From NCBI GenBank assembly GCA_973895155.1, contig OZ316894.1, positions 20,404,451 to 20,468,450 on the forward strand: a stretch of 64,000 nt of DNA. Direction: 5' to 3'. The DNA comes from Marsupella aquatica (lineage: Eukaryota > Plantae > Marchantiophyta). The notes beneath the pieces were generated by a model that ran no database searches, had not been told where the DNA came from, and saw only the letters and a list, made by a program, of their open reading frames with translations. The position numbers were made by a program, and so were the translations under genes. Positions 1 through 62,340 of this stretch are shown in pieces (the first letter of the stretch is position 1; every line of letters begins with the position of its first letter).

Positions 1-2753
1 ACAGATTACCTGCCCTTGACTGAGTCAACTCTCCATCGGCCTGACTGGGTCCACCGTCGGCGTCGGCATCGGCTCGGGAATCGGTTACGGCCTCAGCCTT
101 GGCTACGGTCTCCCCGGCCTGCTCAAGAGGCGGATTTGGGATACCGGCCTCATTACTGAGTAGTTTGGCTTGGGCCGCACCATCCCCACCTGTGATGATA
201 GCGGGATCTATTGCCGTATTCATGCCGGAGGATGGTGCTGGGTCTACCTCCTTGGTCACCACGGCCTGTGGAGTCGGATTACTCCTTGACCCTGAAGGTT
301 TCCGCTTCTTCTTCTTTTCTGGTTCGGCAGCTGGTCCCTTCCCCTTCCCTCTTACTTCCGGCATTGGTGCAGGTGGCGCGGCTTTTTCTTCGGCAAGTAC
401 CACTCCTGGTAACTTGGTTGTCCCAATTGGAGTTGGGTCTGATGAAGACAAGCACTTAAATACTGCGGCTTGTTTCTTCAGCCGCACTGTTTGGTTATCG
501 GCCCGCCACTGAAGATTCTCCATCTTCCTCATGATTTCCTCCAACTCCTCCTGGGTCTCATCCAGGTCCTTGCGCGCCTCCTCTAGTTCCTTCTGGGCTT
601 CCTCCCGTTCTTTCTTCAAGGTAGCCCTCTCCTCCCGGGTTGCTCTTAGCTCCTTGTCGAGCTCTGCAATGATGACAGACTCCATCTGATTCATCTTGGC
701 GTAAGTCTGATCGAGCATCTCGTCATTCTCCCTTAGGTCGGCCTTGAAGCTGGCCGTCAGGGACGCAAGCTCTTGCTGCAGCGCCATAATCCCTTGATAG
801 GATTTTCCTAACTCGGCCTCCTTTTGCTCAAGGGCTCCGCGGATTTTCTCGAGCTCCCCCTTCAACGCCCATTCCTTTGGGTCTCCGCCATGGCCCGGCT
901 GTTGGCTGTTATGTGGGCCTCCTCTGCATTCCTCAGCTCTCGCTTCCACTTCTCCCTCTCTTTGATCGTATCGGCCAACTCTCCCTGCGTCTGAGTTAGT
1001 TTATCCTTGATATTCTGATTATCAGCCTGCGCGGTGTCCAACTGCCCCTACATGATGTTCAGCTCATGCCGTTTAATCCGTAGTTCATCTTGGGCTTTCT
1101 TGGCCGCCCTTAGATCTTCAATCTCGGCTTCCATCCTCCTAAGCCGCCGAATGACCTCGTCCTTCTTTCTTCTCTCTAAAGCCACCGCTTCTTCTAATTG
1201 GTGCTTCTCCAACTGCTCCCTATGGAAAAAGGGTCCTACCTCCAACTCCTCTCCAAAGATGTCGAGCGCAAGTTCCCCACACATCTCACCATACTCCATG
1301 GCTCTATTCTTAGCGTAGGTGGAGTAAGTAGAAGTGATCGGCATCGCCCATCGCGGCCTCTGCTCCCAAGCCGTCTTGCGGATCTCTTCAATCGTGGCTA
1401 GAGGTTTGCTTCCTTTTTCGGCTAGCCGCCTGATGTCCTCCGGCCAATCTCCTCCTGGTAAATCCTTTTCCCTAGCCAGGGCTGCCTCCTCTTCCTGCCT
1501 GATTCGCTCCTGAAATTCCTGCGCCGTCTGTTTTATGCCGTCAAAGCTCGGGGGAGCAACATCTGGTGGGGGAGACTCAGGGCTACTCTGCTGGTTGGGG
1601 TCCCCTCGTACTACCCTTGGAAGTGTGGGGACAAACTGGCCACAGGTCCTTACTCCTGGAACGTGATGCTCCGACCCATAGCCGGAGTTATCATGGCTGC
1701 AGTCCTCCATTGCCTCCTCTACTTCTTGGACGTCCGGCTTCTCCCTCTCCTCTTCGTCGGTAGGAGCTTCAGGCAATTCTGCCTTAGATTCAGAGCTTGA
1801 GACTCCCACATACATTCGAACACCTGGCTTGGATTCCGGCCTGATTCTCTCCTCGTCTCCAACAAAGGGGTTTTCTCTTGTGAGCCGGTGTAGGCCTACC
1901 TCTGGAGTACTGTCCTGCATTGTTGCCGTTGCCATTGTCGTTGCCGATGCCGATCTCTTTTCTTTCTCCAGTAGTTTCAGCAGACTCTGCATGCCTGGTT
2001 GCTGCATCGGCAAGTCCTCCTTCCTTGGCCTAAACACCTGCTCGATCGTAGGGCTAACAGGTGGTTGAGGCTTCTCTGCTACCGGCCTCGGTTCTGGAGC
2101 TTCCTCGGGTGCCCTTACCTGCAGGGGAAGTACTGGGGCAAAAGTCTGACCTCTGGCATACCGGCACAACAGCGGCATGTGATAGCCAAGCCGCGACACG
2201 CTCCCCATGCCGATTACCTGCTGCTCCTCCTTTAAGATCTTCTTCAATTGGTTGAGGAGGTACCCGTTGTAGTCCCGACTTGGGTCTGGCCTCTCTGCCA
2301 GATAGACCTGTGCCTTGCCGATCTCTGCCCTCGGCAAGTTACAATGCATGGTCACCCGCAAGAAGTCGATCATCTCTCCTATGTGCGGGTTGGTGCAGGT
2401 GTTCCAGAAGAAGCCATTCTTCGTTGATGGCCCGGGGAACGACCGGAACTCTTGTCAGGCAAGGTCTTCCTGGTATCAACTTTGGTCTTATTGCCTATCG
2501 GCAAGCTAAACACTTCGGCAATCACTTTGGGAGTAAGATAGAAATCCTTCCCATATATCCTCGTGCAATTGGTCTCGGGTTCCCATGACCCCACGAATTC
2601 TAATAGGTCTGACTCCGGTACCTCCGGCTTTAGCCATGGTAATCTTACAAAGGCCTCTAAGCCGGATCCGGCCATGAAGCCTTGGTACTTCTTGGTCTGC
2701 ATGGCCGTAAAGCATGCATCCTCCTCCCGTGCAAAATGTAGTTGCACCTCCAC
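1..2753 (-). pseudogene. Long retroelement accessory ORF: plant-transposon-protein/PMD-like N-terminal domain, low-complexity linker, coiled coil
   Basis: ORF 2379-2753 (LLEFVGSW...RIYGKDFYLTPKVIAEVFSLP) joins 1048-2373 by a frameshift near 2450. After a TAG at 1048-1050 the frame continues as a heptad-rich coiled coil (ELDKELRATREERATLKKEREEAQKELEEARKDLDETQEELEE), with no stop seen down to the window edge. Family assignment is from motif recall only. Confidence 0.55.
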
Positions 2754-3514
2754 CGGTAGGGTTGCCGCCCAGCCCTTCCAAGTGTCATCCCTGGTTGGAA
2801 TGGCCTTGATGGGATCGACCTCCTCCTCTTCTTTGGTGCCGCCGACCTTGTTCTTTTTGTCGGGGTGGCTTCATCGTTGACGGCTCCCTTCCTCTTCATC
2901 TCTGCTGCCGTGGAGGTTTCTCCTAGCACCGTTGCCTGGGTCCACCTTTCCGTGCTACCCTTTAATTCCCAGTGTATGTCGTTGCAGTTCTTGATGGCGT
3001 CTCGAATGCCGATGATGCTGTCTTTGCAAAACAGAAGATCGTCGAGTTGATTGGAAGTAGGAGTCCACAAGAACTCGTCCTTGATGAGTTCGCCTCCTAA
3101 GAAAGCCGTCTTCTGCAGCTCCCACAATCGAGCGAACTCCTGCCATTCTCGAGCTGCCCTTTCTGATTCCTCGTCCTCGTAAGTCTTGATGTACTCAGTT
3201 GCCTGTTCGAACAGGCATCCCCAGAAATGTGCCGCTTGATTGATGTTGCTCATACCCTCCTTAGGTCGATCGTCGGTATCTACTCTCTCCCCGAGTGCTT
3301 GCCTAAGCAGCTGACAGTAGTTGGCCTCCCGTAGTCGTCTGCCTAGTTCGTGCTCGCAAATGAGCCACCATCTCCTGCAAGCGCTCCTTACCCCTCTCCT
3401 CTTCCGGTCCTTCCTCCCGTTGATCCTTCCTAGCCGCCGACGCTTAACGTGCCCTAACCCTAATCGAGTTTTCACCCCTAGCGTCCTTACCTCCGGCCTC
3501 GGCCCGGGTTCCAT
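2657..3514 (-). CDS. Hypothetical helical accessory ORF of the nested element
   Basis: 285-aa ORF directly upstream of and overlapping the accessory ORF, with a basic NLS-like tail (KRTRSAAPKKRRR). The true start may be internal (MSNINQ, ~3253). No recognisable domain. Confidence 0.4.
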   Translation of the reverse strand: MEPGPRPEVRTLGVKTRLGLGHVKRRRLGRINGRKDRKRRGVRSACRRWWLICEHELGRRLREANYCQLLRQALGERVDTDDRPKEGMSNINQAAHFWGCLFEQATEYIKTYEDEESERAAREWQEFARLWELQKTAFLGGELIKDEFLWTPTSNQLDDLLFCKDSIIGIRDAIKNCNDIHWELKGSTERWTQATVLGETSTAAEMKRKGAVNDEATPTKRTRSAAPKKRRRSIPSRPFQPGMTLGRAGRQPYRWRCNYILHGRRMHALRPCRPRSTKASWPDPA

Positions 3515-3629
3515 AGTCGCCCCTAATTGTTTATATTTTCCTTGTTTTGTCCCTATACTAAGGTGTTTCTAGGGTGCCTTCCTGTTTTACTCACTTAACT
3601 GGCCGAGTGATTCCTGTCTAGGCATCACA

Positions 3630-4270
3630 TCAAGCAGCTCCTGGAACTCTCCTCTAAACTCTGAGCCCTGGTCAGTGAGACATTTTGCACAAGCTCCAAA
3701 GCGACTGAGAACTTGTTGCAGGAATGCCTGGCTGGTGCTACGGGAGGTCTTATCCGGTAATGCCACAAGTTCTATCCACTTGGAGAAATGCTCTATCATG
3801 ATCATGATGTAGAGATTACCCCGAGATGTGAGGGGTAATTCTCCAGCCAAATCACATGACCAACGATAAAACATGGCCTGAATAGGGAGTGGATGAAGTG
3901 TGGGTTGCCGAGATATGAAAGAAGTCCTTACCCTATCACACTGCTCACACCGGGCAATAACATCTCAAACCTGGCCATGCATGCCTCTCCAATGATAATG
4001 AGGGACCAAGAGGCTGTAAGTCCTCTTAACGCCAAAATGACCAAGCTCAGAATGTACCTTACGGATAAGGCCAACCCTCTCATGAATGGGTGAAACCACC
4101 ACTTCCCTATCTGGCAAGCAGCGCACAAGATGATCTCCCTTCCACAAGTAGCGCTTGGACCTTTGCTGAATTCGGTCTCTCTGGGCAGCAGTAACATGGG
4201 TGGGGTACTCCCCATGCTGCAGAAATCTTAGAGTGTCACTGTCCTCCCATATGTCCACCACAGGTTGGTC
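3630..4270 (-). pseudogene. Integrase (HHCC zinc finger plus start of the DDE core), truncated
   Basis: VHSELGHFG...WRGM, then an in-frame TGA at 3965-3967 followed by DVIARCEQC. Core motifs WSCDLAGELP...EHFSKWIE...RFGAC...LTDQGSEF. Ends before the catalytic Glu. Confidence 0.92.
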
Positions 4271-4379
4271 AACAACGTAGCATGGCAACAAAGCAAGATA
4301 GGTAGATGCATGAAATGTAGGCAGGATGGAAACCTGGTCAAAATCCTGCCGTGCATCTGAGGAATCATCAGAGGCAATC

Positions 4380-5760
4380 AAAGGGCTGCGGGACATAGTG
4401 TCAGCATTTTGATGTGTCACACCAGGCCTATGAATTACCTCAAAATCATACTCCTGGAGTATGAGCGCCCAACGAGCAAGCTTGCCAGTAAGCTTGTCGT
4501 TGGTCATCAACCACTTCAAGGGCTGGTGGTCGGTGTAGAGGACAAACCTGGTCCCATAGAGGTAAGGCCTGTAATGTATGACAGCCCACACAACAACAAG
4601 GCATTCACCCTCATACGAAGAATAATGACTCTGCTTGATTGTTGCTCCTGGATGCATAGGCAATGACGTACTCTTTACCTTCCTCATCATGCTGGCCCAG
4701 AATGGCACCAATCCCAAGGGCACTCCAATCTGTGTGTAGCACAAAGACCTTGCTGAAATCAGGTCTTCTCAACACCGGGTATTCTGAGAGCTTCTCCTTC
4801 AAAGTGGCAAATGCTGCCTCAGCATATGTACTCCATGTCCAAGTCACATTCTTTTTCAACAAAGCATACAATGGGTGTGCAATGGTGCTGAAATCTTTGA
4901 TGTAGATCCGGTAGTAATTGCACAACCCAATAAAACTCCTCAAAGTGTGAACATTAGTAGGAGTGGGCATTTCCAAGATGGATACCACCTTGGCCCAGTG
5001 AGCCATGGTTCCATTTGGAAGAATGCGGTGCCCAAGGTATACTATTGATCTGACAGCAAATTCACACTTCTTGGGGCGTATCTTTAGGTTCACCTTCTTA
5101 AGCCTCATGAATAGCTCCTCAAGGTCAAGTAGATGCTGGTCAAATCCTTTGCTGTGGACGAACACATCATCAATGTAGCATTTCAGAAACTCAGCACCTT
5201 GAAGAACTTGGTCCATGACTCTTTGAAAGAATATGGGCGCATTCTTCAAGCCAAATGGCATCACCAACCACTCCCATAGTTGGTTACTGCCATGGAAAGC
5301 TGTTTTCTTGCGGTCCTTTGCAAGCAGCAAAATCTGGTTAAAGCCTTGCCTTAGATCCACAAGAGTGAAGATGTCTGAGTCTCCAATGCTGTCAAATAGC
5401 TCCTCTGGCCGTGGCATGGGGTACCTATCCTAGGGTGTGACCAAGTTCAGTGGCCTGTAGTCCCCACACATGCGCTTCTCTGTCCACAATCCACTGGAAT
5501 CCTTCTTTGCTGGCATCACTGTAGCTGCTACAAAATCTGATGTAGATGGCTGAATAAGACCAGCTTCATAGAGCTCTTGGCACCTCTCATCCACCAGCTG
5601 CCACTCATGCTTACTCAAACGGTGTCTCCGCCTGAAGATAGGTGTTTCATCAGCCAACTCAATGGAGAACTGCATAGTCTTGCACTTACCCAAGTCCTTC
5701 ATAGAGAAAGCAAACACATTCTCATGCTTGAGGAGCAAATTCAGCAGCTGGTCCTTCTGT
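4380..5760 (-). pseudogene. Reverse transcriptase and RNase H
   Basis: RMCGDYRPLN, DLRQGFNQI, KTAF, MPFGLKNAP, YIDD, KKCEF, YLGH, LRSFIGLCNYYR. RNase H: LHTDWS, YSSYEGECL, YTDHQPL, RWALILQEYDF, NADTMSR. In-frame TAG at 5430-5432; frameshift near 4625. Confidence 0.96.
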
Positions 5761-6129
5761 CTTTTACTCAGGTGGTTGCCCATGATGAATGTGTAGTTGG
5801 CAACACTAAGAATAGGACCTGATGTACTCGTGCTTGAAGAGCCAGAAGTGCCAGCCTCTCCACCCAAGCTGCTAGCATGCTGTTGATAAGGTGATGAGGC
5901 CTCTCCAAGGCCTGCTGTATCTGTTGCTCTGGTCTGATCCACATCATGAAACTCAGAAATAATGTCAGCCACATTACAAGGGACCTCCTCCCCCCCAACA
6001 CTTGGACTGAAGCGATGAGTGTTGAATAGAGGTAAGTGCACCTGGTCTGGATGCCATGTAGCAGCACCATGGAGTGGTAGAGGTGGAACTCCAGATGCTG
6101 GATGAATGTACATTTGAAAAAGGATGCAA

Positions 6130-7080
6130 GTGACCAGAAGCCAAGTGAGAGCATTAAGATCCATTACCCTACCAAGTAAAGCATTCCTGACCAGCCTGGT
6201 GATGTGGGTGTGGCCTATAGTACCGGATTGGAAGCCCATAGCCCGTTCTCTCTCCTCAGGACTAGGTTCATCCCAAGTACCGGTAGAATGTCGATAAACC
6301 AGGCCAGGACCATCACCCTGAAAGGCATGTGCACCTGGAAAGGATACAAATGTAGGCCAAGCAGCATGGGGCTGTCCAATGGTATTGGCTGGATACCAAG
6401 GTGCTGGCTCTTGCCGTGTAACTGGTTGGCAAGAACTGTCAGGATCCAAAATCTGGTCCACTGTGAGGTTAGTGTCCCTGGATGTGTGGTGAAGAGCTAA
6501 CTCCAGCAAGGAAGGTTGTGCAAGGTTAGTCCAAAAGTTCCGAAGACGATGTGCATAAGAACCACAGTGCACTGCATCAATGAGAAGGGGTGGTCCCAAG
6601 TAGTGCTGGACCACACTGAAATCCTCTTTGACCTGTGGACGCTGGTCAAACTGAGATGGAGTATTCTCAATGATATAACCAACAGCAGGATAAAGGGATT
6701 GAGCCCAGGTGAGAATCTGAACCAATGCTGTGAAAAGGCCAGAATGAGAATCATGCAATCCAGCACCGTGACCAGCAGCTGAAAACCCTTGGCATTCCCA
6801 ACCAGTTATGATCAAATCAAGGGAGCCAAGAAGGGTTAAGTGTCGGTGCTGGACAAGCTGGATATCTGGAGGGAAGAAAGAAAATGCAGACTTCCATGCA
6901 CTGTGTGGAAATTGCTGGGGAAATCGCTCTGAAAATTCAGGCAAACGGGATTCAGCCACGTGCCTTGCACCTGGATCAATGTCCACATAGATGTACTGCT
7001 TCACCACCATGCCAGACTGTAGGAGAGCTTCCAAGCCTGTAGAAATGCCACCAAAAAGCTCAAGCAATGTAAGGCCATCC
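6130..7080 (-). CDS. DNMT3-like C5-cytosine DNA methyltransferase domain inside pol
   Basis: In ORF 5430-7682, in canonical order: motif I LLELFGGISTG, II YVDID, III DI, IV DLIITGWECQGFS (catalytic Cys), VI YIIENT, VIII IDA...AHRLRNFWTNL, IX EERERAMGF, X RNALLGRVMD. No stop between this domain and the RT N-terminus. Confidence 0.9.
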
Positions 7081-7410
7081 GAAGGAGGAGTCCATGTAAC
7101 TGATGCGCTCAAGATTGGGGCTATCGGTTGTCCATTGTGCTGCCCAAGGTCCTCAAATTTGCGCAATGCAGCCACCAAAGGTCCATGGGCTGCTTGGAGC
7201 CGTAGTACCACCTCTGGTTGATGATCCACGCTGATAGAAAGTGCTGCTATACGTGTAGCAGCATGTGTAGCAGCCACCTCATCATCATCCTCCTCAATCC
7301 AATCCTGCAATGGGTGGTTGACATAGGTAGCTGTGTGCATTGCTTTCAACACACAGTGGTGAGCCATAGGTGTATGGGCACCATGCAAATCAAGGGGAAT
7401 GTAGCCCAAG

Positions 7411-7800
7411 CTAGTGTGAGCCATCAGTATGCCAATCAACTCTGTAGTATGCATGCTCATGCCAGTTGTCAATGGTAAAACCTGGTGGGAACAAAGCCTC
7501 CTGGCCAATGAGCACATCATACATAGTGGCATTGGTAATAAAACATCTGACTGGGAAATGCAGTTCCTGATCTGTACCTCCATTAAAAGTGAGAGTGAGT
7601 AAAGTAGAACTCTCACCCAACACGTCCTCCACAATGCCACTAGCAGTTCGAATGTGCCACCTGGATTGCTGTAAGTGATCAATCAGCAGTCCCATCTTCT
7701 TGGCAAACTGAATGCCCAATATCACTGGTTGAGCGCCTGTGTCTAGCATGACCACCTGAGGAGTGTGACCCTCCAACTTGACCGCTGAATTCTTGTTGTC
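7411..7800 (-). pseudogene. Retropepsin aspartic protease
   Basis: VMLDTGAQPVILG, flap IRTASG, YDVLIGQEAL in ORF 7411-8208. TAG plus a 1-nt frameshift at ~7411 leads into the methyltransferase frame. Confidence 0.9.
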
Positions 7801-8346
7801 AACAATGGCAATGGTGGTGGAAACTAAAGTCCTGTCACTAGGCACCACTTTTGGCAAATGATGAGGTACCTTGTGAAGGGAGTTAGTGTCCACGGTCTGC
7901 CCACTCAACAGCATAGCCAGGAAAGATGGAGTAGCATGACCAGAATCCAGTGTAGCTTTGGTCACACAATCTGCAGCAATACTGTCATCTCTACCACTGG
8001 AAATTGGTACTGGGATAGCCAAACCAGTGGAAGCATGTAATGGAGAAGAAGAAAGTCCAGTATATACATGAGATTGGACCTCCAAAACCGGTGTCACAGG
8101 GGCTAATGAAGAATGCAGTGAGCCCTCTAGCGCTCTGATGACAGCTCTAGCATCCAACTGTAAATCATGGCAACTGAAAAGTGGAGTTGTAAGAATCCTT
8201 TGTGCCATACCGGAGGTGACATGCTCAAGCAGCTCAGGAGAAACAACTCCCTGTCAAATGTCAGCAGCACCTGGTGGTGGAATGGATGTAGCTGCAGCTC
8301 CCTCCCCCCTCGCCAACAAGGTGCGCTCTTCAGCAAGTGTGAGTGG

Positions 8347-10185
8347 CTAAAAAGATTGGGGCAAGACAGCCCGAGCTCCCCTGGCTCTAGTCATAGGACC
8401 GGCAGCAAGACCATCAGCCTGTACAATGCGGCGTGTGGGAGCAATACGAGAGGCAGCACTAGCTTGCTGGTAAGCAAAATAGGAAGGGCAAAATGAATCT
8501 GAAAATTCTGCTGTAAGGCCAGCCTGTGGAGCAGAGGACAGCACACACTCACCCATATGAGCATCAAATGGCAAGCCATAGAAAGAGCGGGGTAGAGGTG
8601 CTGAACTGTTAGTGGTGCCAGAGCCAGGGATGGGTTGCACGTGACCAGCCGGTTGAGAAGGACCAACAGAGGCAGTTGACTTGCCTTTGATGTTGGCAAG
8701 TTGGGCACGTAGGGACTCAACCTCATGAGTCAGAGACTGGAGTTGAGTTGCCTGTGCATTGTGAGCCTCCTTCTGAGCTGGTGGCTTCTGTGGCTGCTTG
8801 GGCAATTTGTTGGCACTGGTTGCTTTGCCACTGGTTGCTTTGCCACTGGAAGGAGGAGCAACTGATGCAGTAGGAGCCCTCCTAGCTGGTGGGGGAGTGG
8901 AAACAGGAGCAGGATGAGTGGCCTGTTGTCGTAGCTGCTTCCTCTCTGGGAATTTGGCAAAACAAACTGCCTCCAAGTGGCCCATTTTCCCGCAAAAATC
9001 ACAGCAACAATATCACATTCATTAGCCTTGTGATTAGGATTGCCACAGTAGTTGCAAGATGGCAGCATGAAAGCAGCATGTGCTGGTTTGGTCTTGGAAG
9101 CATACTGTGGCACACGGGAAGGGGTGGCCATTGTAGGAGCAGCAGCCTGGTACCTGGATCACGGTGGACGCGCAATACTGGCCTCATAATATGCATGGGC
9201 CAACTCAAGTTTCTCAGTAGTGTCATAGACATTGAGCAGGGTGTAGCTGTCTCCAAACTCTGAGAATACTTGCTGCAATACTTGCAAATGGAGAGCTGGT
9301 GTGCCCTCCAATGCGCGAAGATAGCGATGAGCAGCTTCCAGGTCAGTGATGCTCTGGGTGTCCTCCTTCAGCTTGAGAAGCCGGCGATACATCATCTTCA
9401 AGGTTTCATCGCGCTGCCTCACAAAGGTGGCCAACTGCATGATTTTGTCAGCACTCTTGATGGGGAATTCCAATTCAAGAACCTGGAAAACTCAGCCACT
9501 GGATCAGCAAAGGCAGGGGAATCAATGGTGGGAGAAATGCCTGACGTAGCCTGTGCCAAGATAGTGGGAGTAAATAGCGCAATGGTAGGAACTGGAGTAG
9601 GAGGGGAAGTGGCAGGAGCAGCAGCATGGGCTGCAATGGCATTTTGTAATGCCAATTGTGAGGCAGCTGCAATTGCATTGGCATAGGCAAGGTTAGGCAA
9701 TTGTGTGACAGTAAGCAGCCATTGAGAGTGCTGCTCATACACATCCAAAGCCTCATGGTGCACATACCTGGCTAGCTGCTTAAATGCAAAAGCATTTGTG
9801 AAATTGCTGCCGTACTTCAACTCCAATTCGTAAACGACAGTGTAGAAAGTGGATTTGAACTCATGTAAAGAAACAGTGCCTGGCCGCCCACTAAAGCGCT
9901 CAATGCGGCCAAATGAGTGGATAGCATCCATGTTGTATGTCGGTAAAGCTGGAACAACCACCGATGCAAAAGGGGTAAATGGCAAGGAAGTGATAGCAAG
10001 CTTTGGGTTAGTGGTGAAGCGACCGCCAAATTGAGCAAAAGGATTGCGTGGTGTGCTACCTGCGGACGTCGTCGAAATTGCCGAGACTCCAATGAAATTG
10101 GCACCAATGGTCGTGGATCACTCCGTAAATGGTACCTGGGTGTCGGTGGTGATGTGCTGCTACCTCTTGGCTCGTCAGCTGACAT
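8347..10185 (-). pseudogene. Gag (capsid plus two CCHC zinc knuckles), frameshifted
   Basis: ATG at 10185 just after the PBS. IERFSG...EFKS motif, MHR-like RQRDETLKMMYRRL, knuckles CNYCGNPNHKANEC and CDFCGKMGHLEAVC. Split over ORFs 9817-10185, 9419-9985, 9159-9473, 8730-9131 and 8347-8985. Confidence 0.85.
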
Positions 10186-10193
10186 GCTGCATG

Positions 10194-10209
10194 CTCACCC
10201 GGGGTGCCA
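10194..10209 (-). promoter_or_regulatory. Primer binding site, tRNA-Arg-like
   Basis: Minus strand ...TTTCCCA|T|TGGCACCCCGGGTGAG: TGG start 1 nt after a CA end and immediately before the gag ATG. tRNA identity is from recall of Arg 3' ends (..GGGGUGCCA). Confidence 0.65.
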
Positions 10210-10210
10210 A

Positions 10211-12240
10211 TGGGAAAGAAATTGACAAGAAAAAAGAATGGCAGCCCCAAGGCTAAGAAATAAAACCCACAAAGGAAATAGACGGTGCGAGGCAGAAATG
10301 TGTCGAATGTGTAAACACACAGAAAAACCGTCGGCAAAGAAAAGACCCTTAAAAACTCCAATAATACCGGTGTTGTGCTTGCTGGATTGACTGTCTGATG
10401 AATATGCCGGGCCCTCAGCTTTATGTAGATGACACGTGGCGGCAGCAAAGAAATCTGGAAAAATAGGCCCTTAAAAACATAAACCTGGGACCCCCTTAAG
10501 TGTAACATCGGCCCTTTCAAATGTATAAACATGGGGCCCGGTTAAGTGTATACATCGGGCCCCGATGTGGACCCGGGAAGTAGCAAGGAAGACGGAAAAG
10601 AGACCGGGCGCGCGTCGGCAGCAAAATGGTCATAGTGGGGACCGGCCGCGGTGCCCTATGTACATGCCCTCATGTGAGTCGAAAGACTCTTCAATCGTCG
10701 CGCAGCGGAGGAGCGACAAATGAATGGAGAAACAGAAGAAAAACGGCTTTGGCAAGGGCGAAAGGAAAAGACGAGACCCAAGGCGAGGCGAGGAAAAAGA
10801 AAACGGGCCTTTAAGTGCTCGAACCCTGCATAGGGCTTTGCGCACCCTCCCCCTCCTCTAATGCTGCCTAGGGCCTCATGCCTGGCAGGACTGTGACTCC
10901 CGAGAGGAGGGAGTCGAATGTACTCCCCCTCTCCCCCTCTTGTAAATGAAAAATGGGCCTCGTGCCCTCTCCTTGCGCTCCCCCTCCCCTCTTTTAATGT
11001 TGTATTGGGCTTCGTGCCCTCTCCTGGCACCCTCGCTCCCCCTCCTTCTTTAATGCTAACAATGGGCTCCGTGCCCTACAGGGAGACTCCCGAGAGAGGG
11101 AGTCGAATGTACTCCCCCCCTTGAATGCTTTAGAGCTGCCTAGGGCCTCGTGCCCTACTTTCGCTTCAACTCCCCCTCCCCTTGAATGCTTCAGAGCTGC
11201 CTAGGGCCTCGTGCCCTACTTTTGCTTCAACTCCCCCTCCTCCTTCATTCTCCATAGGGCCTCATGCCCTCGGTTCTCGCTCCTTCTCCCCTGTTTTAAT
11301 GCTGCCGAGGATGCTGGCAACGACAGGAAACAAATGAAGGAATGGGCGAGGGAGGAAGAAAAATGTTGAAGGGAGGGCGCGCGGCCCTATGCGCGACCCA
11401 GGGGCAATGATGAGCGCCGCATGTGTATACACAGGCAGGACCGGGAGGCACCTCGCGACGGTAGCTGCGAGGGGAGGCGAAATGAAACAACGGCCGGTGA
11501 GGGAAAAGAAAGAACGGGACCCCAAGGGGTCATGAAAACGTAAAGTGAAGGGAAGGTGGTCGCTCTGCGACCGGAAAACACCAAAAATGGCCCAAAAAAG
11601 GTCGTGGCAGTCAGCAACCGGCAGCCATAGTCGGAAGCAGCAAAGGGTCCCCAGATGCAACCGGAAAGAATCAGGCTCCAATAGGAGCGTTATGTGTATA
11701 CTTATGTTAAGTATACACTTAACACCATATTGAACCCATAATTTCAACCCGTACCTCCATTGTTGCTCAAAGAAATTGCACCGGCTTTGACGGAAATTGT
11801 TTGGACCGACATAGCAGCTGAGAAGCACAATGTCTTTGATCTTCTTCCCTTCACTGCTAACCCGGCGTCAGTTCTTCTTGAATAAAAGGCGTAAGAGAAA
11901 CAATTGTACTGAAATCAAATCGAAAACCGGCAGGATGCCAAGATCGGTCGGGAGCATCTAACGAATCACTATGTGAATCTCGTGTACGGAACCGACGAGC
12001 ACTGTCTGAGCTCTGTCAACAATGATTCAAGAAGAACTGAAAAACCCACAAACAAAGACATGCCCTAAGTAAACAAAGTCCTGGTGTCACACTAACAAGC
12101 GCGTTTTCTTCAAGAACGCCTGGCATTTGCTATAAGAACATGTCGCTAACTCAAGTCGTACACTAGCCCTAACTACATACCTAGCGGGCATGCGAGGGAC
12201 ATGCCGATGTGCATAAGAGGCACTGTCCCTCGGCATGACA
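10211..12240 (-). repeat. Putative 5' LTR (~2.0 kb)
   Basis: Starts TGTCATGCC at 12240, at a sharp switch from CACTA subterminal sequence, and ends CA next to the PBS. The partner LTR is not in the window. Confidence 0.65.
10860..11270. repeat. Internal direct/tandem repeats within the LTR
   Basis: GACTCCCGAGAG..GGGAGTCGAATGTACTCCCCC at ~10895 and ~11085; ~61-bp tandem pair at 11121-11240; recurring GGGCCTCGTGCCCT. Confidence 0.85.
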
Positions 12241-12680
12241 GTTTTACAGAAAACTATATCATATGTTAAGACTAGGGGAGCCATATTAATGGCAAGTGGA
12301 GTTTTTTGGTATCACGAGCCAAGTCATTTTTACAAGAATTTGAGTTGTTTGTAAAGACTAGTTCAAACATTTGTTATGACGGTGGAGTGGAATTTTACAA
12401 AAACTAGTCATATGTTATGACTACTATAGACATCTTTTATGACTAGTGGAGTAATTTGTTTGAACAAGGTGAGTCACTTGTTATGAGTTTTGTTGCAAAA
12501 TTCTAAGTGCACATTGTAATTATTAATGACTTACACAAGAGTCATTCGAATGACTCTCGACCATTTGAGTGGCAAGACAAATGACTTGAGTCTTAGAAAT
12601 GACTCAAGTGAAAGTGAGTCCTAAGTGAGTCATACGCTAGTCCTAAGTGCAGTCACAATTGACCCCGTTTTCTACTAGTG
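12241..12680. mobile_element. CACTA (En/Spm) element right end with subterminal repeats
   Basis: TTTTCTACTAGTG at 12668-12680 is the reverse complement of CACTAGTAGAAAA. It is preceded by many GACTAGT/GAGTCA/TGACT motifs. Confidence 0.75.
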
Positions 12681-24559: not shown

Positions 24560-25381
24560 CTATGCAGTTTTCGGCGTGTCACCCCTGTTCTTAAGCCACA
24601 GATTGAAGTTCAGAATGGTGGCGAAAAGCACCCACGCAAAGTACGGCTTTAGCAAGTTCGCTGCGACGTAGTTCACAGGCTGGAATGCGTTGATAGTGGC
24701 CGCCAGGACAACATCCAGGACCAGGATGTCGACCAGAGCCAGACCGAGATTCTTCCAGCCGAAGAAGAACATCGGCCATAACAAATTCAGAACAAGCTGC
24801 GCGATGTAGAGAGTCAGAGGCATGCCCTGTTTATGGAAGCCTCCCTCAGCCCAGACTAGCCACGACGCGAGTCCCATAAGCGGATACAGCAAGCTCCAGG
24901 CGCCACCGAAGATGGGACCGGGTGGTTCCCACCACGGCTTCTTCAGTTCTAAGAACCATTTCGATGTCGGGGAGTTGAAGAGCGCGTCTACCGACCCCAA
25001 GAGCAGCGGAATGCCCACAAACAGCACCAAGCTTTTCACTCCAGGCCTTGAGATCTGCGATGACACGTAATTCCGCGTCTTCGTCACTGTGTCCTTAGTA
25101 TCGCCCGCGGCCACCTGAGGATCGCGAATCCGCTTCGCAAGCCCCTCTGACGAACTCATCTTTCTCCTCAGTCCGGAGAAATCAGACGACACAGCACCCC
25201 TGCTCAAGAAAACTGCTCCACCCCTCGCGCCAAGATTGCTACTACTGCAGCTCCACTGACCCCTAGCAATCGAAACTACTCCAAGATTGCGACGCCGTTC
25301 TGATGAAGAGCGGGAATTACTACTACACCTGAGAGTCTGATAGCAAGAATTCGGAATCGAGAGGAGAGACGAGGCGGCCAT
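24560..25381 (-). CDS. TSPO: TspO/MBR family translocator protein, intronless, with Ser/Arg-rich transit-peptide-like N-terminus
   Basis: WFLELKKPWWEPPGPIFGGAWSLLYPLMGLASWLVW, QLVLNLLWPMFFFG, LLKPYFAWVLFATILN. Confidence 0.95.
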   Translation of the reverse strand: MAASSLLSIPNSCYQTLRCSSNSRSSSERRRNLGVVSIARGQWSCSSSNLGARGGAVFLSRGAVSSDFSGLRRKMSSSEGLAKRIRDPQVAAGDTKDTVTKTRNYVSSQISRPGVKSLVLFVGIPLLLGSVDALFNSPTSKWFLELKKPWWEPPGPIFGGAWSLLYPLMGLASWLVWAEGGFHKQGMPLTLYIAQLVLNLLWPMFFFGWKNLGLALVDILVLDVVLAATINAFQPVNYVAANLLKPYFAWVLFATILNFNLWLKNRGDTPKTA

Positions 25382-29130: not shown

Positions 29131-29773
29131 CTCCGCTGACTTCCGCAAACTCGGGGGTCTATCATCTTCCTGATCGACAGCAGCTGCTGAAGAAAATCCT
29201 CGTCTCCATGCAAACTGAATATACATCCGATTGCACTGGAAAAATTCCACATAGTTTTCAACCAGTTTATTGTAGACATGAAAGGACAGTGAAAGCCAAG
29301 CGCGTAGACAAGTAAAGAAGTACACGAGCTACCACGACATCTCAGATCCAGGTATCCCTGTGGTACTTCGATTAAACACGAGCCCGTGTGGTACTCAAAT
29401 GATGGCTCTTTACTACCGTAAATCACACCAGTGGCTGTCGAAGGATTGTAAAGCTTGCAAATATCAATCCCCCATTGTACATCAGAGCAACGAGAACAAT
29501 TGAACTCTATCCTTCAATACATATCAGATAGTGCACAGCATTGAGAGAAAATAGGAAAAGACGAATGTGATCCTGTGTTGATTTATGTACAGAGCTTCAC
29601 AAGGAGATTGCTACATGCACGACAGGGAGAGGGTAAGAGCTCCTGGTCGGGAGTGGTTTTCCAGCCACCAGAACAACCGAAGTCCCATCGGCTTTAGCAT
29701 GAGACATGCACGACCCTTCACAGTTCACTCCAAAAAGAGCTAATGCACCCTCTTAGTAAGAATCTAATTACTG

Positions 29774-31941
29774 TTATACCGCTGCCTTCTCTCCTTCTTT
29801 ACTTTCTTCCACGGGATCCTCCGGTCTATCTCCAAATTTTTTTCCTCCATGGAAATCGACTTCTTCGGTGGGGAGACTTTTCCTGTCTTTCCCTTCCTTT
29901 ACAGTCCAATAATCCCAAACACGGGACTTTGGTGGCTCCTTAACTTCTCCAAAGGGAGCCACAAGGCCAGGCTTTCCATCATCTATGACATGGTCAACTA
30001 GGCCATATTCCTTAGCTTGCCAGGGATTCATGAAGTTATCACGGTCCGTGTCGAAATCAATCTGCCAAATACAGATCAGATAGGTAGGTGCAGATCAGCA
30101 AGAGATCATCATTTCATATGGTAAACAAAAGACACTCAGGTGATAAGTTCAACGTTGAATTTTGATTCTACTGATTCCCATTGACCACTCACTGATGAAT
30201 TCCCCATACACTACACGAAAAAAATCAGAAGGAATTTAGCCAGAAGGTGAAATGAGAAAAACAGAAACTTACATCTCACCACATTACAGCATAGAGGTGG
30301 AGGGATGCTTGCATCCTACATGCAAGAAGTACCCTTACAAACCCCAATTTCATCTTAGCGAATGATCTTGTGCAAACACATTTAAGATAGACATTGGTAC
30401 CTGCTCCTCTGTTTGCCCAGTCAAGCGAGCCATAATTTTGGCTAACTTCTTCTTGTGATACATCATCTCCCTCACTTGCAGCCCTACTTCTATTGCCTGC
30501 CAGTGGGACACAAAACCAAATGTTAGAACGAATACTGTAGCAGTTGAACGAAAAGAAATAGAAATGCCCCAATTTAACCCTCACATAACAGGTTCTCAAT
30601 CTGAGTTTTGACACAGGTTAAATTCAAGTTAAATATCTTCTAATAGACTTCTCAATTGCACTTGGGATACCGGGCCCAAAAATGAAAAGGATGTTGTCAG
30701 ACAGCAGCATATAACCTACCGATCCACCCGCACCACCCAAAGGTTGATGAATCATAACCCGAGCATTTGGCATGCAATATCGTTTTCCTTTGGAGCCAGC
30801 AGCGAGTAAAAATGCTCCCATGGATGCAGCTAAACCAAAGCATGTCGTGGATACGTCTGCCCTGCACAACTTCATGGCATCGTAGATACCCATCCCTGAT
30901 CCCAGTGGCTTTATTCAGTCTCTGAAGCTTGTCGCCAGTTTTAAATTCTAAAGACAAATCTTCGCTGCTCAACTCCACATTCCCAGATTCCAAAATACAA
31001 AAAAATGTAAAATTTAGCCTCCAATTGCTAACACAGAACACGCATGCACTTCATTAAATGAGAAGAAGAAGAAGAAAGGCCCACCGGCAGTAACTGAACC
31101 GCCAGGAGAGTTAATAAACAGCTTTATATCCTTAGTCGGATCTTGAGCATCTAGAAGCAACATCTGACTTATGATAAGATCCGCTCCGTTATCCTCCACC
31201 TGCGTACCATACAACCGGGTCCATATTAACCACCAGGCAACACCTCTCTGCGCCAAACTATCGTATCCTACATCGTTCCGAGCGAAACTATTCATTTATA
31301 TTGTATCAGCTCTCTCACCGTGAATGGTGAGTTTGTCAAAATGCTGAATCCGCTTGAAACAATTCAAATCAACCGAAGACTGTCATCATAATTTTTCAAC
31401 TTCAAAGCTCGGAAAAGTCTCACTCTAAGACTAAGGCTGAATAAAACCCAGCTGAGGCGGCTGTCTGGCATGAGCGAAATCCAAGTGGTCGAGATGCACA
31501 AGACAGGGCAGACAACGCTACCCAGTCTAAGAAAAAACTGAATCACGCAACAAGCCAGTATTCCGGATTGCAACCCACCTGCCCACCTAGGAAGATAACC
31601 CTCTGCTGCAAAAGCATCGTATTGGGGTCCAAATCCTGCAAACGCAGGGTCGCTCCTCGCCCATACCCGCTGCTGATAGGATCCAGAGGCGGAAGGAAAC
31701 TCGCCTGTGCCCCACATGCCCTCCTCCTGCTTAAACTCTCGGACGATAAATCCCTGCAGCTCCTTCGATGTGTGCTTCTGCTTCTTCTAAACCCTACTCC
31801 CAACCTCGACCCCCAAAACCCGCTTGCACGCAATTCCAGGCCGCGTGAATTGCTGCTGGGAGAAGATGATGTGCTCGCCACTCCCTGTAGTAGAGATGTC
31901 GTCGCCATCGTCGCCATCGTCCTCACCTTCAGGACCTCCAT
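29774..31941 (-). CDS. CLPP3: Chloroplast Clp protease proteolytic subunit 3, 5 exons
   Basis: Transit peptide; [31 protein letters not shown] (Ser), MIHQP (His), DTDRDNFM (Asp); ClpP3-type tail [21 protein letters not shown]. Exons ~31941-31579, 31199-31085, 30895-30720, 30496-30401, 30061-29774. Confidence 0.92.
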
Positions 31942-56424: not shown

Positions 56425-58375
56425 TCAATTCTTGACGACCTCGATTAGATCCAGGCCAGAGAAGTTGAGGAAGCTCACTCGTGAAAACCCGGCCTCGGAA
56501 ACCAGTTCTTTCCACTCCTCAGCTGTTCTCTCCTTCCCTTCTCCGCAGTAGGAGAGCATCCCGAGGTTGGCGGCGTGCGCGACTCTGGATTGGGCGCTGC
56601 GGTCTGCAGTAGAGCGCAGGACGTTCTCGCGAATGATCACCTTCCCGTTCGCTGGCGTTGCTTCGTAGCACTTCATCAAGATTTGGACACACTTCTCATC
56701 ATTCCAGTCATGCAGGACTTGCTGCAGGCACAACAACGTGAAAAGGAGTCATTCTTCTCGTTGTGAGCCGATTCAGGCTTTGATGCCTACCTACATCTTT
56801 ATCCATCTACGCATTTGGAAACTGGCCAAAGGCCAGAGGTTAGAAAGGAAAAGTTCCTAATCATTTTGCTGGAAAGTTGTCTCTCTACGTTCATCTGATA
56901 GCATTCTTGATTAACTAACATGTGTGGAGCAGTGTTATCCGGGGGCTTGGTCTGAGATTGACTGAGAAGCGTTACCTCCATAAGGATTGCATCTGCTTGC
57001 GGAATACGCTTAAACATATCTCCAGCTACGTGCTTCACACCTGCGGAGGAAGAAGTGACCAAGGGGGAAAAGCAAATTGTTAACTGGTGTATGGTAGCAA
57101 TCTCAAAAAAGGATTGATCTGACCAGCTGGAAGGCCGAGCCCACGTTCAAGAGATGCTTGTGGGTTAGCGAAGACTGAGGGTTAGTACGATAATGTACTC
57201 GATTCGAAGTATTTAAAAAAAAGCTTAAACTCGTAACACTCGAGCACAATGGTATCTATGCAAAGGCCCCGGGCCTTCTGTACTCTCACTCTCAAATTTG
57301 TCCAAGCTCGCTATGCTACTCCAGTAGAATACTGAAAAGGAAGATTCGACGGAAGCTGCCTGAACTAAAGCAGTTGCCCACAGAGCATGAACTTGGCATC
57401 TACGGATGTGTCTAACTACAGTACTTTGTACTGCTGACGTATGTCTTACGACACTAATATCGAACCTGATCGTCTTATTTTCACGAGCTTCATCCTAATC
57501 GAAAACTATCCAAAGTTGTCAAGGAAATTGTTGTTGTCAAATATTTAATTATGTCACAGGGACCGAAAGAAAAGAAGCAAGGGCGTAAACGTTGCATCGG
57601 ACGGGATGAATTACGCACCAGGAATGGCAGGTGCAGTGGCAATAACGTGAGTTAGGTCGAAGTTGATTCCTTGGATATGTGGATGCCTACCAACAATACT
57701 GGCGAGAGCTTGTCCCCTGCATCCTCCAACATCGACGAGACTTCTAATGTCGTAAAAGCCCGCGTAGTGGTTTGCAATCGTCCAATTCATGGTCTTCGCT
57801 CTGCACGTCAAGGCGTCATTGAACACCTTGTTGAATCCGGGACTGATGCCTGTGTAGCGGAACAGGTCAGTGCCATTGGTCTCTTCGAATGGGTCGATTC
57901 CGTCGAGAACAGCGGAATGGAGGTGCATGAAGCAGTTGACCATCTCCCTCCTCATCTTCATGAGCATCATTGGGACCAAGTTGAAGTCGTTCGCCGTGAC
58001 CAGCCACTGTGACAAATGAGTGAGGCCGAATCTGGACTCCATCTTCCCCGTCGATTCCGAGCGGACAAAGGACTCGGCGAACACGTCACTGAGGACTAGA
58101 ATTCTGAGGATGCGACCGACTTGGTCCTCAGCATTCGCATTCTTACGAGGCAGCTGCTCGACAATTTTCTCAAGCGATAGGCTACCGTTGGGCCCGGCCT
58201 TGGCAATAATGTCAGGGATACGCAGAATCAGAGCAGCATTAAGGGCTAACGGAGTCATGTGCATATATGCCAGCTCCATGATCTCGTAGAACCCTTCCGT
58301 TGGAGGGCCACTTTTGCTTTTCTTCAGAAATTGTTGAGTAGGGGCACCTGTGCGTTCTGCCATGATCACACCCAT
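56425..58375 (-). CDS. Plant class II (COMT-like) SAM-dependent O-methyltransferase, 3 exons
   Basis: Dimerisation domain (ALNAALILRIPDII, RILRIL), LVDVGGCRG, GINFDLTHV, HVAGDMF, VLHDWNDEKC, GKERTAEEW..AGF. Exons ~58375-57619, 57040-56976, 56721-56425. Confidence 0.93.
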
Positions 58376-60991
58376 AACTGCTCTCTCTATCAATTAGGAT
58401 CGGAGAATTAGCGATATTTTCCACAACACTTGAAAGCTGTGTTTCTCTCAAGAAGTATGAAGTACTGCACGGCAACAGAACACAACTGTTTCGGTGCTCT
58501 TCGGAAAGCTCTGGAGATAAAAACTGAAATTCGGCTTACACTTATTGAACTCTAACGGAAGAGTCAAAGATTGAGATTTATCTCCTGCACAAAGGTCTTC
58601 CACTTTTTTCCCTTGATAGGATTGGGAAGTACTTCTCTGTTCGAGAACAAGTTGCTAAAGCCAATCCAGGTTCAAAAGAGTACTTTCAGTACCGGACTCC
58701 TGACACGATTTGATTTCTAGCTAAAGAGCTCTGCGATGCAAATTGGATTGATCGAACATGACCTGTTTCTCGCCTTTATATACTGGCGAGGCAGGTGGAC
58801 TGGATACCCACTCCATAGGTCAGAATAACTGATGTCAATAGCTTTTGACCAACTAGTTTTAGGGGTGCGCACTGCGCAGCTCCTACAGTGAATAAGGAAG
58901 CCTTGAAATCTCGAATCGCTCGCATGCAACTAACATCGAAATTTGAAGCGTTGAAAGGTGTCATACAACTTGGACAGATCACTGAGACACGGGGAGCTAG
59001 GAGCTCTAAATTTATCGGGACCTCTAGCGATCGAATCTCGACCTGTCAACGTTTGAAAGGTTTTGGTCTTGAGACAGACGCTGAAATCCTTTCCAAGAGC
59101 CGCCCACAAACTAGGGAGGTACACCTGATGGCGATCTCTAACAGCTGATCTAGTGAGCCACTTGCAATTAATGGCTGTAAGAGTCTTCTCTACCCAAGAC
59201 GGTACAGTTTGGTTAATATCGAAGATAGACGGCGGAAGACTTGTGCTGTAAGTTCCGTTGATCCGAGAACACTAACGTCGGCTTTTCCTTGCTTCGGTTC
59301 CTATCTTACAACATGAACGAGAAAAACAACTTTCGTGATGCAACTGCAGAGCTTACTCGATGGTTCTTGGGACTTCCTAGCAGCCTGTGCCTGTAGCGCC
59401 GCCCCAATCTCTCTTGGATTGTCAATGTTTGGACTAGCTTCACAGTCGTCCTGGGGTCTACAGTCCTTGGACTCTCTGATACAGATCTTGGACTGTGAGC
59501 CTGGTCAACCGCCAGGTTTCGCGGAGGAAGGATGACCAAATTAAAGGTGCTCCTACAGTAGCCGACTTTGAGCGGATTATTGTGCCGTGCTGGCTCAAGC
59601 CAGTGAGCGACGATGACGGAAATTGGAGCCGTCAATGTATGACAGGGCAGCTAATGTACATTCATCGGGACTCTAAATTTCATACGCCGGCCCCAACTCC
59701 CGATCCATACTCGTGATTACTGTCAATTTTTATCTCGTCTCGTAAGCAGCCAAGTGCATCGTTCCCGTTAAGGCGGGGCTTCTCCCGTCAAGAATCGACG
59801 CGTACAGTCTCGTCGCAAGGAAATCTAGAAAGTGCGGGCAGCGCAATTGCGCTTTACCGTTTTGCTCCTGGTTTGTGAAGGTTTCGTTTAAGGAAGACTA
59901 ATCATCTTCAAATTGATTAAGCTGGCGATCAATTTGTGCTCCGACTACACAATATCGGGCAGGCTTACATCATCACAGCAGCTACACATAATCATAAAAA
60001 TCAAATAAGTTAAAAGTTCAGTACATCCATGCTGTTCAGTGAGTGGAATCCAGTGAAATATTTCAAGGCAAAACCCAGTCCAGTACTTCAGTACATCTGT
60101 TGCATCCAGCGGAAATAGCTTACTACCTCCCACGAATGTTAAAACAAACTACACAGAAACAAGGTGAACCGTTACTTTACTGCAAAGTGAGACCGAAACC
60201 TTGAATTCTATTGAAAAGTTGGATTCGGCAGGGAAGCGCATTGAAGGTGGTCAATCTAGCTGCACTAGCCCGCAAGAATCGGAATCCCCACTTGTGCCAA
60301 TGAGGAAGCTCGCTTTCACTTCAAGTTATCAACAAGTTTGGGAGCTCAATGTTGTGACTAGAGTTCTCGTAAGTCTTCGCCCACCTTTCCAGTGTCTTTC
60401 TCAGCCGTCTGTTCATTCATGCTCCCTGCGTACATTTTTCAGCTTAATGCCGAATGCGGGAGAGCCAGAAAGTTCGTGAGATGGGTCTGGTCCGTTTCGC
60501 GTGCTCTGCTTCCAATAAGAAGGGAACCGTACACGCGCAGTGTGGCATGTATTCTGACGTACGTCCCTCCATGGCTCCGTGTGTGGAAAGTAGGAAACCC
60601 TCTGTTAGTTTGAGATTGTACCCCCTTCGCATTTGTCTCATATCTCTCAGCCCCTTCCTGGCTTGGTAAGTTGGTAGGTCCCCAGGAGATGCGGCAGGTA
60701 GGGTCCATAAACATTTTTGTTTAATTAATCCTTACGAAGATGCGGCAGTACCTTCCTCGGAATATTGAGCGGGGGTGTTTCATAATTCCCGGTTCGAAAT
60801 CCGGAATGCAAGCGTTTGGAACAAATTTTCATGGTTTGTTTCCTTTTGCACAGACAACTTATCAAATATGCAGATTGCAGAGAGTACTCTCTTCGTGCCA
60901 AGCGCGTTCGATGTCTGCGGGAATGAAGGCAACCTGGCAGTTACTTTGCAGTCCTGTAAGTTGATGAGTTCTGAGTTTAGTACCACTAATA

Positions 60992-62340
60992 CAGTTAATT
61001 CTGGATAAATGCACTCTCCATAAACGTTTACCCTGGATTATTGCATGTCATCTTGTTCTTCTCTTTTTTTACATGAGATAAGCGGTTTTTAAGCATTTTT
61101 TCTAAGCGCACATAGGGCTAAAATCATTCCCCTAAACGACAACTTTCTAAGCGCTTACCCTGGATAAATGATTGAATGCGTTTATATGTAAATGCATAAA
61201 CTCCAGAAATGTCATTTACCGATAAAGGCTTGCCCATTATTAGTAGAGTAGATAATGCACTTAAGGAGAGTGGGCAAAGGATTAGGGCCCCGATTAGGGC
61301 AGGGATCAAGGCACGAGGCTGACTACTGGGTCCATAGAGCATGTGAACACGGCTGCGCACTGTAGCTCATGGTACTGTAGCTCGTGAGTCATTGGGATTG
61401 TCAGGTGGAATCAACATGGAGGAAAGGAAGGTGACTACAGTGACTCACAAGCAGAAGCGAGAAATGTGTCGCCACAAGCAAAAGCATCCAGAGCTCACAA
61501 ACAAAGCTCTAGTTGAATGGGCTTCAGAAACATTTGGCGCTAAGGTACATCAAACTACTATTGGTAGAATCTTGAAGAAATCTTTCTCATTGCTTGCCAA
61601 TGTGACTGCAAATGAAGTCAAACGAAATCGTAGTGCACTTTGCCCAGATCTGGAAGAAAGCCCGTATCGTTGGTTCCTCACTGCCCATTAAGCTCGAGTG
61701 ACAATTTCTGAGGATTTGATTGTTGAGAAAGCTAAGGGATTGCAAGCCCGACTCTCGGAAAAGGTACCGGCTGTCAAGGATTGCAAGTTTAGCTCAGGTT
61801 GGTTGCATGGATTCAAAAAACGGCACAACATTCAGCTACGTGTCATGCATGGTGAAGCTGACTCTTGTCAAGTGACCGAGGATACATGGGATCAAGTCGC
61901 AGCTCTCAAGGCTACATTGCAAGCCTACGAACCCTGTGATGTTTTTAACATGGATGAAACAAGGCTATTTTTCAGATTGCAACCGAACAAGTCCTTGCGA
62001 GACAAAGCAGTCAAAGCACAGAAGAAAGACAAGACACGGATCACGGTGGGATTGTGTGCGAACATGGATGGCAGCATGAAGCTCCCTCCTCTGGTCATTA
62101 ACAAGGCTGCAATGCCCCGAGCTTTCTCCCAGCGCAAGATCAAGCTACCAAACAACTTGGGCATTATGTGGTATAGCAATTCAAAAGCGTGGATGAAGGG
62201 CAACATTTTTCAGGATTGGGTGCTTTGATTCGATAGCCGGTTGAAATCTTTGGGCCGAAAGAAGGTGGTCTTGCTGCTGGACAATGCACCTGGACATCTT
62301 CTAGCTCCAATTGCCAGCAAGCTGTGTAGTATCACACTAG
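60992..62340 (+). mobile_element. pogo/Tigger (CENP-B-like) DNA transposon, 3'-truncated; transposase pseudogene ~61417-62340
   Basis: TA|CAGTTAATTCTGGATAA TIR-like start at 60992. HTH domains (KALVEWA..F...TIGRILK; FSSGWLHGFKKRH), FNMDET, RITVGLCAN.DGS.KLP, AWM, LLLDNAPGH. In-frame stops at 61689 (TAA) and 62226 (TGA). No third catalytic Asp region or right TIR found. Confidence 0.9.

Follow-up and report, generated by a model that had tools for sequence, protein, structure and literature searches.

The window considered here is a stretch of 64,000 nucleotides from contig OZ316894.1 of the liverwort Marsupella aquatica, and it contains a retrotransposon that carries a DNA methyltransferase of its own. 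The element is almost certainly a decayed Ty3/gypsy copy of the KnitGypsy-Dnmt3 kind, in which the methyltransferase (MTase) belongs to the polyprotein and is located between the protease (PR) and the reverse transcriptase (RT). Positions 6102–7109 encode an uninterrupted DNMT3-like C5 cytosine MTase domain of 336 amino acids, recognized by Pfam, by profile comparison, and by its predicted fold. All features of the element described below are read on the minus strand.

The domain is part of a minus-strand frame, 5430–7682, which is open for 750 codons. Within this frame, the C5 MTase motifs follow one another in the canonical order, spanning positions 7058 down to 6168: motif I (7058–7035), II (6986–6972), III (6866–6855), IV (6818–6780), VI (6677–6657), VIII (6581–6522), IX (6254–6231), and X (6188–6168). 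The RT N-terminus comes after the MTase and extends down to 5433, followed by an in-frame TAG (5430–5432), where relatives have a sense codon, and by the RT core; the RT is mapped to 5010–5807 (RVT_1, 1e-26). The frame, the order of the motifs, the RT N-terminus, and the single TAG had been reported in a preliminary description of this DNA, and all of them are present. The same description placed the protease immediately upstream of the MTase. The protease is indeed upstream, but it occupies another frame (open reading frame, ORF, 7411–8253) and is separated from the MTase by a spacer. It follows that a frameshift is present near 7411 in this copy, and the long frame begins with ~90 codons (7682–7411) that read the protease region out of frame.

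The search with the Pfam model PF00145 that had been proposed as a check gives a narrow pass, with DNA_methylase matching at 4.9e-5 and 23.3 bits, the cutoff being 22 bits. It is the sole domain that Pfam finds in the 750-residue frame. A look-up in the Atlas yielded DNA_methylase clusters and nothing else, and it carries no weight here. In a single-sequence phmmer search across the PDB, the top match of the 336-residue domain is DNMT3A (6e-6). With a profile of 20 sequences, DNMT3A is again first in the PDB (9e-25, or about 1e-24), followed by DNMT3B (2e-22), whereas DRM proteins reach 1e-11 to 1e-8 over a part of the profile only, and HhaI reaches 1e-7. The AlphaFold model of the domain has a pLDDT of 95.2 and matches DNMT3A in Foldseek (E 2e-19, TM 0.72/0.84) and DNMT3B in VIA-align (Z 29.2, rmsd 2.5, 277 residues aligned). 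The fold ranking is led by DNMT3B and DNMT3A (Z 29 and 28), with M.MpeI as the next family (Z 24.9) and DNMT2 proteins below it (Z 21–22.5). Profile and fold thus agree with the earlier proposal of a DNMT3-like domain without the DRM permutation. The catalytic Cys, the Glu, and the Arg-x-Arg are all present in the window domain. Two other identities are rejected: a plant DRM, because the motifs are not circularly permuted and DRM matches only a part of the profile, and a host plant DNMT3 gene, because Pfam detects no C-terminal DUF3444 and the RT follows the MTase.

The location of the MTase inside pol is a trait of a whole family, which is distributed across green algae and bryophytes. The relatives comprise 178 and 49 matches of sequence searches, 150 profile matches, and 38 loci that represent 24 distinct insertions. 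Among the 416 proteins examined, 301 are DNMT-positive: 27 have the neighbors PR-DNMT or DNMT-RT, 132 have the DNMT between RNase H (RH) and integrase (IN), and 142 have no neighbor, the ratio of 132 to 27 being biased by a search profile that contained RNase H and integrase columns. The named carriers of the PR-DNMT or DNMT-RT order are Calypogeia fissa, Marchantia polymorpha, Closterium, Klebsormidium nitens, and Sphagnum magellanicum, and the search for PR-DNMT-RT relatives suggested earlier thus returns the same order in bryophytes and streptophyte algae. In S. magellanicum, the carrier is a spliced gene model with the protease side only (PR-DNMT), and the annotated copies of M. polymorpha are Mp4g09160 and three MARPO models. 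In K. nitens, KFL_013780020 consists of CCHC-PR-DNMT and KFL_013780010 of RT-RH-IN; the two tags are adjacent, and both are located on 7497-bp contigs. That the MTase is part of the polyprotein, as first proposed from the window, is borne out by the relatives P0353, P0418, and P0446, in which gag-PR-DNMT-RT-RH-IN form one unbroken ORF. Another relative, P0121, aligns with the window in a single frame across 7010–4620. In the 38 loci, which were fetched through the DNMT and are unable to reveal copies without this domain, PR precedes the DNMT in 30 and RT follows it in 32. Many proteins of the RT clade begin ~100 residues before the RT, so their upstream neighbor is not visible. A PHD finger is located at the end of the element in 24 of the 38 loci (Pfam PHD 4.7e-11 in P0171). 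The viral contigs gave three pattern matches and no confirmed relative, and small-share rows from air metagenomes did not enter the analysis.

A chlorophyte sister group (P0126–P0169, P0289–P0414), with Haematococcus, Scenedesmus, Monoraphidium, and Cymbomonas among its named members, has the DNMT after RNase H and ahead of the integrase, and a PHD finger is usually present. For the spacer ahead of the DNMT, a comparison of the two orders did not establish homology (best E 0.034; hhalign probability 0.07). Among the loci, L032 holds two family copies arranged tail to tail (8125–12409), and in the copies L036 and L037 an internal deletion has brought the DNMT and the integrase C-terminus together.

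The catalytic Cys is retained in 200 of 201 near-full domains, as is the Glu; of the two arginines in motif VIII, one is present in 199 and the other in 195. The target-recognition segment varies widely. The ratio of nonsynonymous to synonymous substitutions (dN/dS), whose comparison among copies had also been proposed, indicates that the DNMT domain is under purifying selection (Ka/Ks < 0.2). The median between the window and the loci, taken over 21 hand-picked loci of the 38 (20 unsaturated ones for the DNMT) and with dS near saturation, is 0.145 for the DNMT, 0.094 for PR, 0.063 for RT, 0.088 for RH, 0.062 for IN, and 0.42 for the spacer; among the loci themselves, PR has a value of 0.42. 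Distances between the DNMT domains are correlated with those between the RTs (rho 0.64, n = 29, with 6 near-duplicates dropped), also within order A, the order of the window, alone (rho 0.58, n = 9, p 0.003). The uninterrupted state of the window domain is found in none of the 38 loci.

The remaining anatomy of the window copy was mapped from gag to integrase by tblastn of less damaged relatives (e.g., P0121, P0122). The Ty3/gypsy order PR-RT-RH-IN holds in the window as well as in the relatives. The element starts at 12240 with the 5′ terminal repeat A (11882–12240), which begins with TG, like the A repeats of relatives. This left end is placed by the summed contig depth, a measure that does not equal copy number and serves only to place the boundary and to compare bins; it drops from ~1e5 to ~1e2 beyond 12240, about a thousandfold, in the runs X1, X2, and X4. 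In the same runs, the loose ends found at 12240 consist of mixed flanks (agreement 0.42–0.49), and the depth bins of the DNMT are of the same order as those of RT, PR, and gag. Within repeat A, a predicted transcript start and self-primer (12025–12040) is the perfect complement of 11868–11883, the position of a primer-binding site right after the repeat. It is followed by a long 5′ untranslated region (9932–11867) with short tandem repeats of the families D7 and D11, in which tblastn finds no gag-related ORF. The gag (7860–9931) is broken by frameshifts and stops and matches P0122 with 54–70% identity over three frames. The aspartic protease (7414–7803; gag-asp_proteas 5.2e-7) is 77% identical to P0006 of Calypogeia fissa. 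Spacers of ~100 amino acids are present on either side of the MTase domain, and the one toward the protease (7110–7409) has two predicted low-confidence helices (pLDDT 30–76). The RNase H (4450–4860; RT_RNaseH / RT_RNaseH_2) has a frameshift near 4625, and the integrase retains its zinc finger and core (3630–4320; Integrase_H2C2 5e-7, rve 9e-13) up to the cut at 3630. In total, four frameshifts and five in-frame stops are counted in our reading of the ORF list and the tblastn results. The window copy is dead, and its 3′ end beyond 3630, with the integrase C-terminus, the PHD finger, and the B-A-B repeats, is missing from the window.

The integrase is interrupted by a different repeat (1–3629), which begins with TG, a start motif resembling that of A, and has a higher summed contig depth than the element. 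It contains long coiled-coil-rich ORF remnants, to which Pfam gives no assignment, and a self-priming pair was looked for in it and not found.

Self-comparison of the related loci reveals terminal repeats in the arrangement A-ORFs-B-A-B, with all four repeats present in L013, L019, L021, and L029. The first B repeat follows a G-rich purine tract. Among the 19 sites of this tract and B1 that were found, 15 have a B1|A2 junction consisting of CA, two bases, and TG, and 13, corresponding to nine distinct insertions, have the second B (B-A-B). Four loci have both outer ends; their termini are TG..CA, and the 4-bp target duplication is exact in three of them and has one mismatch in the fourth. A full B repeat upstream of A1 was found in none of the four loci checked, L029 having a 24-bp match there. 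For the family of the window, there is indirect evidence of the same layout: past each edge of A are loose ends, and these correspond to the end and the start of the B repeat of relatives. The A2|B2 junctions in L005–L035 vary by a few bases among insertions; this could be the variation expected of junctions made anew by end-joining, and decay could explain it as well.

The complementary sequences at 12040–12025 and 11883–11868 form a perfect inverted pair of 16 nt. An inverted pair of at least 16 nt with separated arms occurs in none of 200 shuffles; with palindromes counted in, 6 of 300 reached 16 nt. The fold of the 201 nt is overall not unusual (z −1.49). An inverted pair is present at the equal position in four of the five relatives scanned, and both of its arms differ from those of the window. 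Such pairs point to a putative Tf1-like self-priming of reverse transcription.

Membership in three other groups was considered and rejected. For the DIRS order, the window and its relatives have an rve integrase, not a tyrosine recombinase, and the insertions have 4-bp duplications; no tyrosine recombinase is found in the Pfam scans, none of which was aimed at a separate ORF in the untranslated parts of the loci. Troyka elements have CG..CG ends and 3-bp duplications (PMC12440569), as opposed to the TG..CA ends and 4-bp duplications of this family. For the chromoviruses (Tcn1, Tf1/Sushi), the relatives end in a PHD finger and not in a chromodomain, the C-terminus of the window copy being missing.

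The preliminary description offered two origins of the domain, descent from the algal elements and a separate capture of a host DNMT3. The position of the domain, the repeats, and the RT tree favor a domain that was inherited from the retroelement lineage of algae or is shared with it; a fresh capture from the host is disfavored. In the trees, which are quick searches, the window RT nests among Calypogeia fissa and Sphagnum-like sequences (81–84% identity, SH-aLRT 99), the window being about equally distant from the Calypogeia- and Sphagnum-named proteins. This clade is sister to the Klebsormidium RTs (SH-aLRT 93), a placement repeated in a second tree, and the chlorophyte group forms a clade with support of 100 for RT and 99 for DNMT. 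If the bryophyte elements had acquired their domain from a land-plant host DNMT3, separately from the algal ones, the equal position and equal A-B-A-B repeats in the Klebsormidium element, as well as the sister relationship of the RTs, would not be expected, and we regard such a capture as very improbable. It gains some room from the absence of host DNMT3 in the trees and from the backbone of the order-A domains, which varies between them. The domain matches the algal retroelement domains at 1e-49 to 1e-65 (pairwise blastp) and DNMT3A at 6e-6 (phmmer), although these E-values are not directly comparable. DUF3444, the companion domain of plant DNMT3 (PMC6453930), is annotated neither among the 120 of the 178 matches that were listed nor among the other set of 49 matches. 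A single insertion of an MTase gene or retrocopy into a dead element, which the preliminary description had itself named as an outcome that would overturn its reading, is refuted by the junctions common to 24 distinct insertions at 38 loci, by the unbroken ORFs, and by a dN/dS of ~0.15.

In active copies, gag-pol would be packaged in the particle and cleaved by the protease, and the MTase freed by this cleavage would travel with the particle and be the first to meet the complementary DNA (cDNA). Self-primed reverse transcription would yield [BA]-ORFs-[BA] cDNA. Once its ends were joined, the DDE integrase would open this cDNA at the internal CA-NN-TG junction, resulting in A-ORFs-B-A-B. Insertion through abutted ends occurs in IS3-family elements. 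The MTase would act on the extrachromosomal DNA, and the new copies would arrive already methylated. It is likely that the MTase of active copies methylates DNA newly made by the element itself; for DIRS elements, methylation of the cDNA was proposed by de Mendoza et al. (PMC5890265). A broader scenario is much more tentative. It describes an ancient green-lineage clade of long terminal repeat (LTR) elements which would be self-primed, form a circle by end-joining, be opened by the DDE integrase at CA-NN-TG, and have this circle methylated by an active DNMT3-like enzyme, the domain having moved once within pol, to a place before RT in streptophytes and before integrase in chlorophytes.

Several observations speak against parts of this account. 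Klebsormidium-type ORFs (5/5: P0376, P0161, P0449, P0451, P0416) stop 3–5 residues past the DNMT, and the Marchantia models (P0124, P0125, P0127, P0145) stop ~75 residues past it, so the DNMT-RT fusion is not universal; these ends may reflect a programmed break, through which gag-PR-DNMT would be produced in larger amounts than RT-IN. The DNMT of K. nitens lies outside the chlorophyte clade in one quick tree and inside it in another. Motif IV of the window has Glu, not the usual Pro, ahead of the catalytic Cys, as do 115 of the 201 near-full relatives. The KnitGypsy domain produced no methylation in yeast, a result that its authors called inconclusive (PMC5890265). The ratio of observed to expected CpG is 0.25 in the coding part of the window element (3630–9931), lower than in host DNA (0.58) and in the nested repeat (0.69); it is 0.74 in the 5′ untranslated region and 0.99 in repeat A (11882–12240). 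In 11 related loci, the element has 0.32–0.40 and its flanks 0.18–0.54. With repeat A at 0.99 and the element no lower than the flanks, the composition gives no specific sign of self-methylation.

The inactivity in yeast, the exchange of Pro for Glu in motif IV, and the variable target-recognition segment would also fit a domain kept for nucleic-acid binding, or for methylation of RNA or RNA:DNA, rather than of double-stranded cDNA. Such a role is quite unlikely, as the Cys, the Glu, and both arginines are near-invariant over 201 divergent domains, and the fold ranks with DNMT3B and DNMT3A above the DNMT2 proteins. Somewhat less remote, yet still improbable, is an action at or after integration, in which the MTase would remain in the integration complex and, guided by the PHD finger of the integrase, would methylate the insertion site or the fresh insert. 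The PHD finger at the end of the relatives and the chlorophyte domain directly ahead of the integrase (132 proteins) are in line with it. In the window group, the domain is located between PR and RT, and in the Klebsormidium-type it ends the gag-PR ORF, so a tie to the integrase is not needed. Methylation of the element's own new DNA remains the preferred reading.

Outside the element, the window contains plant-like host genes. They include a CCCH zinc-finger-like gene from 14246 (our reading), an intronless TspO (24560–25381), a spliced ClpP (about 29770–31790), a MORN-repeat gene from 34275, and an O-methyltransferase (about 56425–58393). A pogo/Tc5-like DDE remnant is located at 61347–62228.

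Cytosine methylation is the main tool of the host against transposons, and the question why transposons carry such an enzyme has been open since 2018, since dinoflagellates and Klebsormidium were the known carriers. With the present family, the KnitGypsy-Dnmt3 kind also includes land-plant elements, and it gains a link to a sister group from chlorophytes whose domain is located elsewhere in pol. In the literature covered, with most subscription papers outside its scope, neither a bryophyte carrier nor the chlorophyte RH-DNMT-IN-PHD form is described. This agrees with the preliminary description, which knew of no land-plant case, and the algal and dinoflagellate carriers are published. Two sources mention "streptophytes" and, in the parts used, name no land plant (PMC12344493; bioRxiv 10.64898/2026.05.21.726589). 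According to a 2019 opinion paper, transposons that encode a methylase do not occur in "land plants, such as tracheophytes", and their loss is the starting point of a hypothesis put forward there (PMC6338049). The bryophyte carriers contradict this general absence from land plants, although they are not tracheophytes. The copies of Marchantia polymorpha bring the question into a model plant for which methylation mutants and knock-downs exist. If the broader scenario described above is true, land plants would possess, in a transposon, a second de novo methyltransferase. One figure legend of the published work mentions split repeats together with a DDE integrase (PMC5890265), in the parts used without explaining them. 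Such repeats would hide the lineage from pipelines which need paired TG..CA LTRs (criteria in PMC6317226).

The element shares a retrotransposon-borne C5 MTase with SymbioDIRS-Dnmt3, SymbioLINE-Dnmt, and the EpiLTRs. The first two are DIRS and LINE elements, in contrast to the DDE integrase of the window element and the additional PHD finger of its relatives; the SymbioDIRS-Dnmt3 domains methylate CG de novo in yeast (PMC5890265). The EpiLTRs of Cymbomonas and Euglena are chromoviruses that carry a DAM domain together with a DNMT4-sister domain (bioRxiv 10.64898/2026.05.21.726589), and neither DAM nor a chromodomain is found in the Pfam scans of the relatives. The DNMT3-type catalytic domain and the canonical motif order are shared with host plant DNMT3 (PpDNMT3a/b, MpDNMT3b; PMC6453930, bioRxiv 2021.02.12.428880), from which the element differs by its embedding in pol and by the lack of DUF3444 and introns; from DRM, it differs by the lack of circular permutation. 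Like Tf1/Sushi and Tcn1, it has a predicted RNA 5′ end complementary to the primer-binding position (PMC6317226). Unlike them, the family has a PHD finger instead of the chromodomain, split repeats, and a DNMT domain. The A-ORFs-B-A-B layout is that of PAT/Ngaro-type DIRS elements; these have a tyrosine recombinase, in place of which this family has a protease, an rve integrase, TG..CA ends, and target duplications of 4 bp. Split direct repeats are known in the DIRS order (PMC8557442). KnitGypsy-Dnmt3 of Klebsormidium nitens has an intronless Dnmt3 domain in a Gypsy polyprotein, DIRS-like repeats, and purifying selection (PMC5890265), and KFL_013780020 and KFL_013780010 are presumably this published element. 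The window element shares with it the Gypsy domain set, the intronless and non-permuted Dnmt3-related domain, the purifying selection, and, on indirect evidence, the DIRS-style repeats. It differs from the K. nitens copy in sequence (35% identity in DNMT, 52% in RT) and in a host which is, by its nearest relatives, a land plant, and from the Klebsormidium-type in having the DNMT and the RT in one frame, where the Klebsormidium-type ORF stops just past the DNMT.

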